The translations under genes and the position numbers were made by a program. The notes beneath the pieces were generated by a model. That model saw only the letters and a list, made by a program, of their open reading frames with translations, was not told where the DNA came from and ran no database searches. A stretch of 4,270 nt of DNA, from IMG/VR virus record IMGVR_UViG_2579778894_000011, one strand, 5' to 3'. This DNA is from a virus (taxonomy: Duplodnaviria > Heunggongvirae > Uroviricota > Caudoviricetes). Position 1 is the first letter of the stretch. Every line of letters begins with the position of its first letter. Positions 381-3,655 of the stretch are shown in pieces.

Positions 381-402
381 TTTAAAAACGGCGGCAGAGC
401 AG
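381..402 (-). terminator. Possible leaky intrinsic terminator at the DicF 3' end (GC-rich segment followed by a T-run on the minus strand)
   Basis: Minus-strand RNA reads ...CUGCUCUGCCGCCG followed by UUUUUAAA (plus 381..388 = tttaaaaa). GGCGG and CCGCC segments within DicF can pair. dicB lies downstream, so any termination must be partial. Confidence 0.35.
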
Positions 403-441
403 TCACGGAGTAAAACTGATACCGCCAAACGTCACCAGAAA
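389..441 (-). ncRNA. dicF: DicF small regulatory RNA (about 53 nt, antisense regulator of ftsZ and other mRNAs)
   Basis: The reverse complement of 389..441 is tttctggtgacgtttggcggtatcagttttactccgtgactgctctgccgccg, which matches my recollection of E. coli DicF almost base for base. Its position between ydfC and dicB on the dicA strand is the known arrangement. The exact ends are processing-defined and cannot be fixed from sequence alone. Confidence 0.8.
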
Positions 442-503: not shown

Positions 504-782
504 GGTGTCCTCAACGGGGGAAGGAATAACCCCGCCATACTTACCGCCGCGCCATTTCGCGGATTGCCACAACCGGAAGCGCACGGTCGACGAAAATTTA
601 ACGACAGGCTATCTATGAACCAGCTACCTCGCCGTGCGCTTTCGCGTTATGGTCTGACTTTTCAGGGAAATATCCTTTCAGTAAACTGTCAATGCCGGAT
701 GCTCACCCGTGTCCGGCGCACGCACTCCACCTCACCCGTGGAGAACTCCTTAATTACTAACCTTAGCTTTGTTGATTAGCTA

Positions 783-1001
783 CTAACGCGGGTATGTAAT
801 CATTCTGGCAATGCTTAATGCCGCTGCTTTTTCCAGATTGGTGATATCCTGCTCCAGAGCGGACAGATTTTCAGCCTGCTTAGCTCTGGCTTCATTGGCC
901 CATTTCAGATCCTGCGCTGCATTAATTTTCTGGTGCATCCACTCATAAAGTTCATCATCGGTATAGTCTGGCGCGATGATGACGGGTTCTCGTTTCTGCA
1001 T
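783..1001 (-). CDS. ydfC: Small prophage protein YdfC-like (72 aa), function unknown
   Basis: 72-aa minus-strand ORF with ATG at 1001..999 and a GAGGAA Shine-Dalgarno 5 nt upstream (plus 1007..1012 ttcctc). The position (third gene after dicA) and length match YdfC of the Qin dicB operon; identity is from recollection, not a search. Confidence 0.75.
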   Translation of the reverse strand: MQKREPVIIAPDYTDDELYEWMHQKINAAQDLKWANEARAKQAENLSALEQDITNLEKAAALSIARMITYPR

Positions 1002-1160: not shown

Positions 1161-1316
1161 TCACTCACCTGAGTTTCTTTCCAGCCAGCGACGGGCACCA
1201 TTTTCGGTTTTAAACGTTTTGCTTTTGGTATACGTCATCGCGGTGAACGTACCGTCCTGGTTGGGAAACACGCCGTACACCAGAGATTCGTTGTTGCCAA
1301 GATCGATAGTATCCAT
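1161..1316 (-). CDS. ydfA: Small prophage protein YdfA-like (51 aa), function unknown; first gene of the dicB operon
   Basis: The internal ATG at 1316..1314 of track ORF 1161..1370 gives the 51-aa product MDTIDLGNNESLVYGVFPNQDGTFTAMTYTKSKTFKTENGARRWLERNSGE, with a GAGGT Shine-Dalgarno 5 nt upstream. The upstream ATG at 1370 has no ribosome-binding site. Length matches YdfA (51 aa). Confidence 0.7.
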   Translation of the reverse strand: MDTIDLGNNESLVYGVFPNQDGTFTAMTYTKSKTFKTENGARRWLERNSGE

Positions 1317-1393
1317 GCTGACCTCATTTCCCCTTAACGCTGGGGTAGCGGAACTGTTTGCTGAGAACACCGTGCGGTGTGTTGATGCAAATA

Positions 1394-1422
1394 AGATTAG
1401 CCATGGCTAACATATAGGTCAA
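1394..1422 (-). promoter_or_regulatory. Candidate sigma70 promoter of the ydfA-ydfB-ydfC-dicF-dicB operon (PdicB-like): -35 TTGACC, 17-bp spacer, -10 TAATCT on the minus strand
   Basis: Minus-strand read: cactTTGACCtatatgttagccatggcTAATCTtatttg. The -35 is plus 1417..1422 (ggtcaa) and the -10 is plus 1394..1399 (agatta). It lies about 75 nt upstream of the ydfA start and overlaps the palindrome at 1397..1410. Confidence 0.45.
1397..1410. promoter_or_regulatory. Candidate DicA operator: palindrome TTAGC-CATG-GCTAA overlapping the spacer and -10 of the candidate dicB-operon promoter
   Basis: Perfect 5-bp inverted half-sites separated by 4 bp. It belongs to the same family as the two palindromes in the dicA-dicC intergenic region (1893..1906 and 1943..1956). 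Confidence 0.5.
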
Positions 1423-1432
1423 GTGATTTTGT

Positions 1433-1448
1433 ATGTTATGGCTAACAT
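1433..1448. promoter_or_regulatory. Second palindrome ATGTTA-TGGC-TAACAT just upstream of the candidate -35; possible auxiliary operator or other protein-binding site
   Basis: Perfect 6-bp inverted arms with a 4-bp spacer, read directly. It shares the TGGCTAA core with the 1397..1410 site but has different half-sites from the TTAGY family. Confidence 0.3.
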
Positions 1449-1460
1449 GATTGATGTGGT

Positions 1461-1491
1461 AAAAGATAACTCATTGATGATGTTATCTTTT
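1461..1491. other. Perfect 10-bp inverted repeat AAAAGATAAC-(11 nt)-GTTATCTTTT overlapping the dicA stop codon
   Basis: Arms at 1461..1470 and 1482..1491. Read on the plus strand it is followed by TTTTATTTG, so it is terminator-like against antisense transcription into dicA. On the minus strand it is not followed by a U-run. Confidence 0.35.
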
Positions 1492-1890
1492 ATTTGTCCG
1501 CTGACGGGCTTTTAGTAATTCTTCAAAGAGTTTATTGAAGTTTTTTACTCGAGCTCGCATTTCGGCGAGCTGGGTATCCTGTTCTGATTCTGGCAGTGCA
1601 TTAAACAGCTCAAGGAGCTCTAGTTCTTTGGGGGATAAGGCAACTGGCTTCTCAACAGGTGGTGTTGGTTGCTTGTCTTCATCGCCAAATAGAATCCATG
1701 TTGGTGAGCATTGCAATACTTTGCTGAGGGCAAAAAGGTTCTTCCCTGTAGGTTCACTATCATCCCGTTCCCATTGTGATACAGACACATGGGAGATTTT
1801 CAGGGCTTTAGCAAGAGACCTTTGGGTGTGTTTGAGGTTTTTCCGACGATACCTAATGCGTTCGCCGATAGTTAAATTTTTTGTTTCCAT
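1483..1890 (-). CDS. dicA: Prophage repressor DicA (CI/C2-like HTH_XRE repressor, 135 aa)
   Basis: 135-aa minus-strand ORF, METKNLTIGERIRYRRKNLKHTQRSLAKALKISHVSVSQWERDDSEPTGKNLF..., with an N-terminal helix-turn-helix (QRSLAKALKISHVSVSQWE). It matches my recollection of E. coli DicA and is divergent from a Cro-like gene. Confidence 0.9.
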   Translation of the reverse strand: METKNLTIGERIRYRRKNLKHTQRSLAKALKISHVSVSQWERDDSEPTGKNLFALSKVLQCSPTWILFGDEDKQPTPPVEKPVALSPKELELLELFNALPESEQDTQLAEMRARVKNFNKLFEELLKARQRTNKR

Positions 1891-1892
1891 AG

Positions 1893-1906
1893 TTAGCTAA
1901 TGCTAA
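1893..1906. promoter_or_regulatory. Candidate operator in the dicA-dicC intergenic region: TTAGC-TAAT-GCTAA
   Basis: Inverted 5-bp half-sites separated by 4 bp, located between the dicA start (1890) and the candidate dicC -35. Confidence 0.5.
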
Positions 1907-1912
1907 ATCGTA

Positions 1913-1941
1913 TTGACTATGTTTTTGTTAACATCTATTTT
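1913..1941 (+). promoter_or_regulatory. Candidate sigma70 promoter for dicC: -35 TTGACT (1913..1918), 17-bp spacer, -10 TATTTT (1936..1941)
   Basis: Good -35 match with canonical spacing, about 30 nt upstream of the dicC ATG. The predicted transcription start falls inside the palindrome at 1943..1956. Confidence 0.4.
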
Positions 1942-1942
1942 G

Positions 1943-1956
1943 TTAGTTATGACTAA
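1943..1956. promoter_or_regulatory. Candidate operator: TTAGT-TATG-ACTAA overlapping the predicted dicC transcription start
   Basis: Inverted 5-bp half-sites separated by 4 bp, same family as 1893..1906 and 1397..1410. Confidence 0.5.
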
Positions 1957-1973
1957 CAATAAAGGTGTTTTAA

Positions 1974-2204
1974 ATGCTTAAAACTGACGCTCTTTTGTAT
2001 TTCGGTTCAAAAACAAAACTTGCACAAGCAGCAGGTATTCGTTTGGCTTCGCTTTATAGCTGGAAAGGGGATTTAGTTCCCGAAGGTCGCGCGATGCGTC
2101 TACAGGAGGCATCTGGCGGGGAGCTTCAGTATGATCCCAAAGTTTATGATGAATATCGTAAGACGAAGCGGGCGGGGCGGTTGAACAATGAAAATCACTC
2201 CTGA
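1974..2204 (+). CDS. dicC: Cro-like regulator DicC (76 aa)
   Basis: 76-aa ORF, MLKTDALLYFGSKTKLAQAAGIRLASLYSWKGDL..., with an AAGGTG Shine-Dalgarno 6 nt upstream. It is divergent from dicA and matches my recollection of E. coli DicC. Confidence 0.88.
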   Translation: MLKTDALLYFGSKTKLAQAAGIRLASLYSWKGDLVPEGRAMRLQEASGGELQYDPKVYDEYRKTKRAGRLNNENHS

Positions 2205-2709
2205 ACAGGCTCGTGAGGCTCTGGATGCCTGGATATGTCGACCAGGAATGACACAGGAGCAGGCGACGATATTAATCACTGAAGCATTCTGGGCTTTGAA
2301 AGAGCGCCCGAACATCGATGTTCAGCGTGTCACAGATGAAGGTGGCGCGGTTGATCAGCGAGCGCTTGGCGTTAATCGAGTGAAGATATTCGAACGCTGG
2401 AAGGCTATCGACACCAGGGATAAGCGTGAAAAGTTCACGGCGCTAGTGCCTGCGATTATGGAGGCTATCCGGATTAGTGATTTCAGGTTGTATCGTGAGA
2501 TCAGTGATGGAAAAAGTATTACGTACATGATCGCCGGGTTAAATAAAGAATATGGCGATGTGGTGGAATCCGGACTGCTTTTTGCAGATCCTGCCGTTGT
2601 AGATCGTGAAACTGACGAACTTATAGAAAAAGCAATTGCTTTCAAGCTTGCGTATCGACAGCAATACCAACAAAAAGCTGGATGGAATTATGAGTCTTCT
2701 TTTTGCTGA
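2188..2709 (+). CDS. YdaT-family prophage protein (173 aa), likely a CII-like regulator; often labelled toxin YdaT in databases
   Basis: 173-aa ORF directly after the Cro-like gene, overlapping its 3' end by 17 nt. This position is held by YdaT-family proteins in Rac/Qin-type prophages. The family assignment is from gene order and general resemblance, not a search. Confidence 0.6.
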   Translation: MKITPEQAREALDAWICRPGMTQEQATILITEAFWALKERPNIDVQRVTDEGGAVDQRALGVNRVKIFERWKAIDTRDKREKFTALVPAIMEAIRISDFRLYREISDGKSITYMIAGLNKEYGDVVESGLLFADPAVVDRETDELIEKAIAFKLAYRQQYQQKAGWNYESSFC

Positions 2710-3655
2710 ACGCCCACTGGTTATAAACACGCAGCTGGCAATGAAAATTGGCTTAAACGAAGCCATTGTTTTGCAACAACTGCACTACTGGTTGAGAGAT
2801 ACCAACTCCGGCATGGAATGTGATGGTGTTCGCTGGATTTATAACACAACGGAACAATGGCTGGAACAGTTCCCATTCTGGTCAGAGTCAACGTTAAAGC
2901 GCGCGTTTGCAAGTCTGAAAACGCTGGGGCTTTTGCGTTGTGAAAAGCTCAATAAATCAAAGCGCGATATGACCAATTTCTACACGATCAACTACGGGAG
3001 CGAGCTTTTAGATGGTGGCAAATTGAGCGAATCCATCGGTTTAAAATGCGCCGCTCCATCAGGTCAAAATGACACGATGGAAGAGGTCAAAATGAAACGC
3101 TCCATTGGTTCAAAACGACTCAATGTCATCGGGTCAAAATGGCCTGATGATCTTACAGAGAATACAACAGAGATTACTACAGAGAATAAAAAGACTTCTC
3201 GTCCGGAAGCTTCGCAACCGGACCCGCAGACGGTTGAACAGGATTTTTTAACCCGACACCCTGACGCGGTTGTGTTCAGTGCGAAAAAACGCCAGTGGGG
3301 CAGCCAGGAAGATTTGGCGTGTGCGCAGTGGATCTGGGGGCGAATCGTGAGTCTTTACGAGCAGGCCGCCAGCGATGATGGCGAGATTTCGCGACCGAAA
3401 GAACCCAACTGGACCGCATGGGCCAACGACGTGCGCACAATGCGGATGCTGGATGGCAGAACTCACAGACAAATTTGTGAAATGTTTGGTCGGGTGCAGC
3501 GGGATCCATTCTGGGTAAAAAATATCATGAGTCCGTCAAAGCTTCGCGAAAAATGGGATGAACTGGTTATCCGCCTGGGGCGTTCGTTTGTACAGCGTTG
3601 TGTGAATCATATTTCTGAGCCGGATACCGAAATTCCGCCGGGCTTCAGGGGGTAA
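2690..3655 (+). CDS. Phage replication initiator (replisome-organizer, O-like) protein; start uncertain (2690 or 2744)
   Basis: Long ORF (track 2636..3655). An N-terminal winged-helix-like segment (MSLLFAERPLVINTQLAMKIGLNEAIVLQQLHYW...) resembles phage replisome-organizer N-terminal domains. Iteron-like repeats and an AT-rich block sit inside the coding sequence, as with lambda O and ori. The ATG at 2690 overlaps the upstream stop by 20 nt. Confidence 0.7.
   Translation: MSLLFAERPLVINTQLAMKIGLNEAIVLQQLHYWLRDTNSGMECDGVRWIYNTTEQWLEQFPFWSESTLKRAFASLKTLGLLRCEKLNKSKRDMTNFYTINYGSELLDGGKLSESIGLKCAAPSGQNDTMEEVKMKRSIGSKRLNVIGSKWPDDLTENTTEITTENKKTSRPEASQPDPQTVEQDFLTRHPDAVVFSAKKRQWGSQEDLACAQWIWGRIVSLYEQAASDDGEISRPKEPNWTAWANDVRTMRMLDGRTHRQICEMFGRVQRDPFWVKNIMSPSKLREKWDELVIRLGRSFVQRCVNHISEPDTEIPPGFRG
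3062..3142. repeat. Four iteron-like direct repeats (GGTCAAAATGA core) spaced about 23 bp apart inside the replication gene; candidate origin iterons
   Basis: Copies at 3062..3072 (ggtcaaaatga), 3085..3095 (ggtcaaaatga), 3107..3118 (ggttcaaaacga) and 3132..3142 (ggtcaaaatgg). The last is embedded in a local dyad, TCATCgggtcaaaatggccTGATGA. Confidence 0.55.
3155..3188. repeat. AT-rich block with three 12-bp-periodic repeats ACAGAGA(A/T)TA immediately after the iterons; candidate DNA-unwinding region of the origin
   Basis: acagagaata at 3155..3164, acagagatta at 3167..3176, acagagaata at 3179..3188. It encodes a low-complexity linker (TENTTEITTEN) in the replication protein, analogous to the lambda ori layout. 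Confidence 0.5.

Follow-up and report, generated by a model that had tools for sequence, protein, structure and literature searches.

How does one repressor hold silent the two promoters that flank its own gene, and through which DNA sites does it act? The question is raised by dicA in a 4,270-bp stretch of DNA from IMG/VR record IMGVR_UViG_2579778894_000011 (hereafter the window), whose gene content and sequence matches show it to be the immunity region of a lambdoid prophage of the Qin type from Escherichia coli. The initial annotation of the window had proposed that three palindromes of the pattern TTAGY-N4-RCTAA, two of them bracketing the promoter of the Cro-like gene dicC and one lying at a promoter that reads into ydfA, are operators through which DicA controls both dicC and the operon of the division inhibitors dicB and DicF. 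We place at about 0.87 the probability that a P22-type immunity switch of a Qin-like prophage has these palindromes as its operators. The switch is already known and has been partly confirmed by experiment, and the present finding is a rediscovery. Its added value lies in base-level coordinates and in comparative support for the operators of the dicB promoter (dicBp), which are listed in databases as “location unknown”.

Palindromes of one family at both promoters

The palindromes lie where they had been reported, TTAGCCATGGCTAA at 1397..1410 (site 3), TTAGCTAATGCTAA at 1893..1906 (site 1) and TTAGTTATGACTAA at 1943..1956 (site 2), as does a fourth palindrome, ATGTTATGGCTAACAT, at 1433..1448. 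The pattern TTAGYNNNNRCTAA (TTAGY-N4-RCTAA) has exactly three matches on both strands of the whole window, whereas 200 dinucleotide-preserving shuffles of the window gave a mean of 0.00 and a largest count of 0. When two mismatches were allowed in the 14-mer this specificity was lost (10 found, 5.25 expected) and the search became uninformative; an extended consensus performed better. The arms of the sites continue outward to give a fuller consensus of 18 bp, TGTTAGY-N4-RCTAACA, and the four best matches to it in the whole window, at 1941 (14/14), 1430 (12/14), 1395 (12/14) and 1891 (11/14), all sit at the two promoters flanking dicA. Scores of at least 11 arose 0.62 times per shuffled window.

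A repeat finder grouped four copies in register (family D1, at 1397, 1432, 1918 and 1943). The palindrome at 1433..1448 had been set apart as a different one, possibly bound by the same or by another factor, yet it belongs to the same family, because it lies in register with the other sites and scores 12/14 on the extended consensus, equal to site 3. Of its two arms, GCTAACA on the right is perfect and TGTATGT on the left is not. The initial annotation overlooked a fifth member of the family, a degenerate one (8/14) at 1916..1933 between sites 1 and 2.

The coordinates of the sites, promoters and genes are given in Table 1. In the divergent region between dicA and dicC, Oc, with its 18-bp core at 1941..1958 and site 2 at its centre, spans about -8..+12 of the dicC promoter (dicCp). 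Om overlaps the -35 element and spacer of dicCp, exactly 25 bp from both Oc and Oa (1941 and 1891), and Oa, with site 1 as its core, adjoins the dicA ATG. On the other side of dicA, OL1, with site 3 as its core, covers the spacer and the first -10 bases of dicBp (about -26..-9). OL2 overlaps the 1433..1448 palindrome and lies directly upstream of the dicBp -35 element (about -61..-44), 35 bp from OL1. A few operator bases differ between the window and K-12 (GGCTAACA versus GACTAACA in OL1, TGTATGTTATGG versus TGTATGCTATAG in OL2).

Table 1. Promoters, operator sites and genes of the DicA immunity region, in window coordinates.
Feature	Position	Strand	Description	Basis
dicCp	1913..1941	+	PR analogue; -35 TTGACT (1913..1918), 17-nt spacer, -10 TATTTT (1936..1941)	Promoter scan
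dicBp	1394..1422	-	PL analogue; -35 TTGACC (1422..1417), 17-nt spacer, -10 TAATCT (1399..1394)	Sequence reading
Oc	1940..1959		dicC-proximal operator; TTGTTAGTTATGACTAACAA; perfect 8+4+8 palindrome	14/14; equals published Oc
Om	1916..1933		Degenerate middle site; ACTATGTTTTTGTTAACA; 8/14	D1 register; covariation
Oa	1891..1908		dicA-proximal site; AGTTAGCTAATGCTAAAT; 11/14	Exact pattern match; covariation
OL1	1395..1412		GATTAGCCATGGCTAACA; 12/14	Exact pattern match; self-match to Oc
OL2	1430..1447		TGTATGTTATGGCTAACA; 12/14	Repeat families D1 and D2
dicA	1483..1890	-	Repressor, 135 amino acids	Open reading frame (ORF) list; annotated DicA in the 100%-identical SLK172 record
dicC	1974..2204	+	Cro-like protein, 76 amino acids	ORF list, annotation, Pfam
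ydfA	1161..1316	-	DUF1391; first gene behind dicBp	Annotation; Pfam DUF1391, E = 1.7e-28
DicF	389..440	-	Small RNA; encoded downstream in the dicBp operon	Rfam RF00039, 72.5 bits, above the gathering score

This arrangement matches that of a P22-type switch. The sites follow a two-fold symmetric consensus of 18 bp, within the 17-20 bp typical of such operators, with scores of 14, 12, 12, 11 and 8 of 14. Several of them (Oa, Om and Oc) are spread across the repressor-cro region, where they overlap the PR analogue and probably the repressor promoter, and a second set, for which two sites (OL1 and OL2) rather than three are supported, is found at the PL analogue.

Agreement with published binding and regulation data

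The published Oc of Yun et al. (2012), TTGTTAGTCATAACTAACAA, which was cloned in pHL1105, is the reverse complement of window positions 1940..1959 (PMC3441716). Site 2 is thus the core of a published operator, and site 1 matches the published Oa. Oc is bound by DicA in vivo and mediates DicA-dependent repression, and a single A-to-C change in one of its half-sites abolishes both binding and repression (PMC3441716); the changed base is window position 1944, inside the half-site of the initial annotation. According to the same paper, binding of DicA to Oc represses dicC while favouring expression of dicA, and the region can be kept in high-copy clones only when Oc carries point mutations. Extra copies of Oc titrate DicA and are toxic (PMC3441716; bioRxiv 10.1101/2025.05.13.653802). 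A Reg-Seq follow-up annotates a DicA site at -8..+12 of dicCp and reports that plasmids with an intact site are counter-selected (bioRxiv 10.1101/2025.05.13.653802).

At the other promoter, deletion of dicA derepresses dicBp 22-fold (Ragunathan and Vanderpool 2023, PMC10448788). The same paper, citing Bejar et al. (1988), describes both intergenic regions as carrying operators like those of lambda PR and PL, in agreement with the OR/OL analogy that had been drawn from the sequence. As later papers cite it, the switch concept dates to Bejar et al. (1986, 1988), and it is through these later citations that we infer the match between window coordinates and the Oa, Om and dicBp operators of Bejar et al.

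The Cro-like protein has been mapped to the same places. In chromatin immunoprecipitation sequencing (ChIP-seq), DicC occupies sites to both sides of dicA, with a further, weak region upstream of dicF; its MEME motif is palindromic, TT(A/C/T)G...C(G/A/T)AA (bioRxiv 10.1101/2024.09.21.614188).

Covariation of operators with immunity type

Relatives of the locus, that is, heteroimmune modules with the same flanking genes, were collected from E. coli genomes and phages, and a protein-based scan added Citrobacter, Enterobacter, Symbiopectobacterium, Rahnella and other genera, with repressors 51-62% identical to DicA. The comparison sets held 12-15 immunity types and included pairs of related types. 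When the divergent region was searched for its best 7+4+7 palindrome, this began 66-68 nt upstream of the repressor ATG in almost all types. The arms at this Oc-like position differ from type to type: TGTTAGT..ACTAACA in the window, TGTTAGA..TCTAACA in L003, CCTTAGA..CCTAAGG in L006, TATTGAG..CTCAATG in L004, TGTTGAG..TTAAACA in L025 and TCATAAC..GTTATTA in L024.

The sites at the other positions change with them. The Oc-like site of each type was compared with the region downstream of every repressor, and the two best non-overlapping matches were taken. The sum over the diagonal, where each site meets the region of its own type, was 321, compared with 269 +/- 8 after permutation, and 0/100000 permutations reached 321. 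In 12 types these self-matches lie 34-36 bp apart, with a cTTGACc/cTTGCC -35 element between them; such an element separates the two operators in all relatives. The OL1 position is among the two best self-matches of Oc in 12/15 types, always overlapping the -10 element, and L003 has at the OL2 position a perfect palindrome of its own operator type, TGTTAGATCAATCTAACA. Across 13 immunity types, the Oa position (127 versus 109.1 +/- 4.0) and the Om position (121 versus 103.3 +/- 3.4) likewise follow the type of Oc, in each case with 0/50000 permutations as high, and Oa, Om and Oc are 25 +/- 1 bp apart in the relatives. The palindromes thus recur at the corresponding promoters of related prophages with position and spacing kept and with arms that follow the repressor type. 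Operator and repressor covary at the OL pair, Oa and Om, as they do in P22-type immunity. Even with related pairs in the set and with the two regions inherited together, self-similarity that persists at only 51-62% repressor identity requires selection.

A third operator upstream of OL2 showed no covariation in this comparison (86 versus 85.7 +/- 2.6). The stretch downstream of OL1 was also considered and was rejected as an operator because it is conserved whatever the immunity type.

A cluster of half-sites at 756..786, at the end of ydfC and about 320 bp upstream of DicF, was rejected as an operator since it does not change with immunity type. The cluster reads ACTAAC-CTTAGC...GATTAGC-TA-CTAAC, has the wrong spacing for a full operator, and is kept in all immunity types, the sole difference being that CTAAC occurs twice in the window type and K-12, versus CCAAC and TTAAC in heteroimmune relatives. 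It might correspond to the weak DicC ChIP-seq region upstream of dicF.

Conservation within the immunity type of the window

The second comparison was made within the immunity type of the window, among 78 loci with a DicA at least 90% identical, with 29 different haplotypes upstream and 37 downstream. In all haplotypes, the TGTTAG and CTAA(CA) arms of Oc, OL1 and OL2 are invariant, as is the -35 element TTGACC. Free variation is seen at the inner Y/R position, in the four bases at the centre, in the promoter spacer and in the flanks, and that at the inner position agrees with the degenerate Y/R that had been written into the original pattern. The stretch from Om to the dicA ATG is invariant or nearly so in the 29 upstream haplotypes, beyond the half-sites alone.

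The promoters of the switch

The dicC promoter that had been predicted near sites 1 and 2 is listed by the consensus scanner (TTGACT-17-TATTTT). Its start probably lies at about 1948, because the DicA site annotated at -8..+12 can be set on the 20-bp Oc. The second promoter, dicBp, reads into ydfA-ydfB-ydfC-DicF-dicB. It had been described as a good sigma70 promoter, and its elements, TTGACC-17-TAATCT, are as described, but “good” overstates the case: its -10 element matches TATAAT at only 3/6 positions, and for this reason dicBp is missing from the consensus promoter scan of the window. We retained it because of its positional conservation and because of the literature, in which a DicA-repressed dicBp is placed upstream of ydfA (PMC10448788).

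The promoter of dicA itself was found neither by Yun et al. (PMC3441716) nor by Reg-Seq. The gene has no Shine-Dalgarno sequence (1888..1908, minus strand). In most relatives a TAGAAT hexamer lies inside Oa and ends 9 nt before the dicA ATG; the window has TAGCAT. The arrangement suggests a nearly leaderless dicA mRNA made from a weak promoter that Oa overlaps, like the lambda cI mRNA from PRM. At the other end of the gene, a perfect 11-bp inverted repeat (I7), TAAAAGATAAC-N11-GTTATCTTTTA, occupies 1460..1492 and overlaps the dicA stop codon (1483..1485). It is followed on the minus strand by TTTTA, and both of its arms vary within the immunity type. This repeat may serve dicA as a weak terminator and so insulate dicBp.

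Alternative explanations and confidence

That the sites exist, that they covary with repressor type and that their cores are conserved is observed. Several points nevertheless weigh against reading all of them as DicA operators. Oa and Om cloned alone in an rpsL assay reportedly did not bind DicA, a result given as data not shown (PMC3441716), and Om scores only 8/14 in the window. Later papers cite three operators at dicBp (PMC10448788), whereas the comparison made here supports two only. In the first Reg-Seq paper, dicB's DicA site is called “low-evidence” and its “binding location unknown”. The dicBp -10 element is weak by consensus, and a mapped start was not found for this promoter. Finally, both regulatory regions lie next to the repressor gene and are passed on as one unit, so part of the covariation signal reflects the shared ancestry of close types.

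The similarity of the two regions could in principle be chance in AT-rich promoter DNA, as both promoter regions are, or a functionless relic of an old duplication, and the pattern with two mismatches is indeed without significant enrichment. This reading is refuted by the absence of exact matches from the shuffled windows, by self-similarity kept in about 12 lineages despite the divergence of their repressors, and by cores that stay invariant while neighbouring bases vary; we give it almost no weight. Binding of the palindromes by a host factor rather than by prophage proteins, either the TetR-family protein YjdC or an H-NS/Cnu complex, also appears very improbable. YjdC gives a ChIP signal in quantitative PCR at the dic locus and interacts genetically with dicA and dicC (PMC9283627), and CnuK9E/H-NS antagonises DicA at Oc (PMC3441716). 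A host factor, however, predicts constant sequence, whereas the half-sites follow the prophage repressor type within one host species and across genera. Repression through Oc is moreover genetically DicA-dependent (PMC3441716), and the geometry of the operators is that of the homologous P22 C2 repressor. On covariation the host factor is rejected and the proposal largely refuted.

A more serious contender, which we consider possible though not favoured, is that only Oc and the sites at dicBp are DicA operators and that Oa and Om are mainly recognised by DicC or are elements of the dicA promoter. The negative binding result for Oa and Om fits this reading, as does the effect of DicC, whose induction represses dicA 48- to 84-fold and whose strongest ChIP-seq peak lies at the dicA-dicC region (bioRxiv 10.1101/2024.09.21.614188). 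The TAGAAT-like hexamer within Oa of the relatives could be the dicA -10 element, which would explain its conservation without DicA, and within the type there is no variation anywhere between Om and the ATG. The negative result was, however, obtained with isolated sites that had no cooperative partner, and the Oa and Om positions change with immunity type, unlike a pure promoter element. Covariation cannot separate DicA from DicC as the binder because both co-vary as one module. The proposal that a single repressor acts through shared palindromes at both promoters agrees with the literature and with covariation, with the reservation that Oa (site 1) is reportedly unbound by DicA alone. Taking DicA and DicC together, we regard it as virtually certain that Oc is a functional operator of one or both, as very likely for OL1 and as likely for OL2. 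Oa is somewhat favoured as such an operator, and Om is slightly doubtful.

A possible mechanism and its significance

In the P22-type switch that we favour, DicA and DicC dimers would recognise the 18-bp symmetric TGTTAGY-N4-RCTAACA, with one outer arm contacted by the helix-turn-helix of each monomer and the four central bases probably without contact. DicA on Oc would block dicC transcription because Oc covers the -10 element and start of dicCp. Oa adjoins the start codon of dicA, whose promoter it probably overlaps. The weak sites Om and Oa are probably filled only by cooperative binding at high DicA, or are preferred by DicC, which would use them to shut off dicA as Cro uses OR3. At the other promoter, DicA at OL1 and OL2 is predicted to exclude RNA polymerase from dicBp, so that ydfABC-DicF-dicB would stay silent. 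Between OL1 and OL2 the spacing (35-36 bp) is one helical turn longer than the 25 bp that separate Oa, Om and Oc, and this suggests that dimers bind cooperatively, and with the same geometry to each other, at both promoters. DicA occupancy of OL1, OL2, Oa and Om, its cooperativity, the non-contacted centre and the start of dicBp are inferred.

It is conceivable, though in our judgement unlikely, that the DicA family uses, where lambda and P22 have three adjacent operators, a conserved two-operator clamp around the -35 element of the leftward promoter and leaves Oa and Om to DicC, the two proteins dividing the operator set instead of competing for every site. If true, the clamp and the divided operators of this short, non-cleavable, antirepressor-controlled switch would represent a distinct architectural variant of the lambdoid switch.

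These operators silence two inhibitors of cell division, DicB and the small RNA DicF, in a large fraction of E. coli; the stretch is matched in 3700/5426 complete E. coli genomes. The full list of sites should be useful in cloning, in the design of reporter libraries and in studies of cryptic prophage silencing, and the comparison helps to define which operator positions are contacted.

Genes and prophage context

Over positions 1300..2250, the window shows 100% identity with the E. coli SLK172 chromosome and 98.9% with K-12-type strains. The SLK172 record annotates ydfD, dicB, ydfC, ydfB, a DUF1391 gene (ydfA) and dicA on the minus strand; on the plus strand it has dicC and a member of the ydaT family, then a replication-type gene with a frameshift and a DUF977 gene. 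The frameshift annotated in this identical record for the replication-type ORF, which lies right of the ydaT-like gene (window 2636..3655; L001 4391..5355), makes it probable that the prophage of the window is defective too, although it is more complete than Qin of K-12, in which ydfX and ydfW are remnants.

DicA matches Pfam HTH_3 (E = 9.8e-16), and its residues 7-71 resemble the DNA-binding domain of P22 C2 (E = 8e-20; PDB 1adr, 2r1j and 3jxb, about 1e-19), a domain whose operator complexes have been solved structurally. The N-terminal five-helix DNA-binding domain of the P22 C2 type is thus present by both PDB and Pfam matches, and the 135-residue protein gave no Pfam match to an S24 peptidase-like C-terminal domain of the kind that cleaves itself under RecA stimulation. 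DicA has been reported to lack an Ala-Gly cleavage site and to be controlled by the antirepressor Rem (PMC10448788). On these grounds DicA is a P22-C2-like DNA binder but not a full repressor of the SOS-cleavable C2/CI type. DicC belongs to the P22_Cro family (PF14549, E = 1.7e-11), its 44.1 bits exceeding the gathering cutoff of 30.2.

DicA loci also appeared on contigs of metagenome-assembled genomes (MAGs) assigned to other gut bacteria. A Collinsella sp. MAG contig (L009) encodes a DicA 100% identical to that of the window, and a Bacillota MAG (L018) and a Veillonella parvula MAG (L019) carry the repressor of the L004/mEp460 type. The loci on these Gram-positive and Negativicutes contigs are most likely mis-binned E. 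coli prophage contigs.

Hairpins in the dicBp leader

The leader between dicBp and the ydfA ATG (1316) contains two hairpins on the minus strand within 1330..1380, ACACC-GCAC-GGTGT at 1367..1380 and CCCC-AGCGTTAA-GGGG at 1330..1345, with a conserved linear motif, GTTCCGC (1354..1348), between them. Both stems are kept by two-sided changes in other immunity types and genera (for example AACCAC/GTGGTT, AATCAC/GTGATT, GCC/GGC and CCCTG/CAGGG). In a second class of relatives, ACAGTTCTGAC precedes a boxB-like stem whose loop is GGAAAGA. The hairpins may act as a nut- or put-like signal for antitermination in the PL-like operon; a protein-binding DNA palindrome would yield the same stem pattern. A search of Rfam at E <= 10 over 1200..2000 returned nothing credible for the hairpins, and in the MAFFT alignment given to RNAalifold they were misaligned.

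Comparison with known systems

The closest known system is dicA-dicC of Qin itself (Bejar et al. 1986, 1988; Yun et al. 2012), which is the same locus, with the same gene order, DicA and DicC, and both regulated promoters. Oc and the published 20-mer agree at every base. The two prophages differ to the right of dicC, where the SLK172-like prophage is fuller and has ydaT-like and replication genes in place of the ydfX/ydfW remnants of K-12.

Among characterized phages, the immC region of P22 offers the nearest parallel. The P22 repressor binds six 18-bp symmetric operators, with the centre between base pairs 9 and 10, of which the outer bases are contacted and conserved and the central bases are neither (PMC4267663). 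The locus described here shares the 18-bp symmetric operators with conserved outer arms and a variable centre, the three sites between divergent genes, the homologous repressor DNA-binding domain and a Cro of the same family. In the relatives L004, L012 and L025, arms of the TTAAG/TTGAG type even occur in the same register. The half-site of the P22 operator is ATTTAAG, whereas here it is TGTTAGY. DicA further differs in that its 135 residues include no RecA-cleavable C-terminal domain and repression is relieved by Rem. In contrast to both P22 and lambda, the two sites supported at the leftward promoter are not adjacent but are split by the -35 element (34-36 bp).

The likeness to lambda CI/Cro is one of logic. 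One repressor silences the PR and PL analogues (dicCp and dicBp) and favours its own synthesis, and a Cro-like protein, working through those same operators, turns the repressor gene off. DicC is nevertheless unlike lambda Cro in fold and family, the operators are 18 bp rather than 17 bp, and SOS cleavage is absent. The RacR/YdaS/YdaT system of Rac and the GfoR/GfhR systems of the Gifsy prophages have other operator sequences but are laid out like the locus described here: the repressor is short and non-cleavable, the divergent cro-like gene has ydaT behind it, and an antirepressor brings about derepression.

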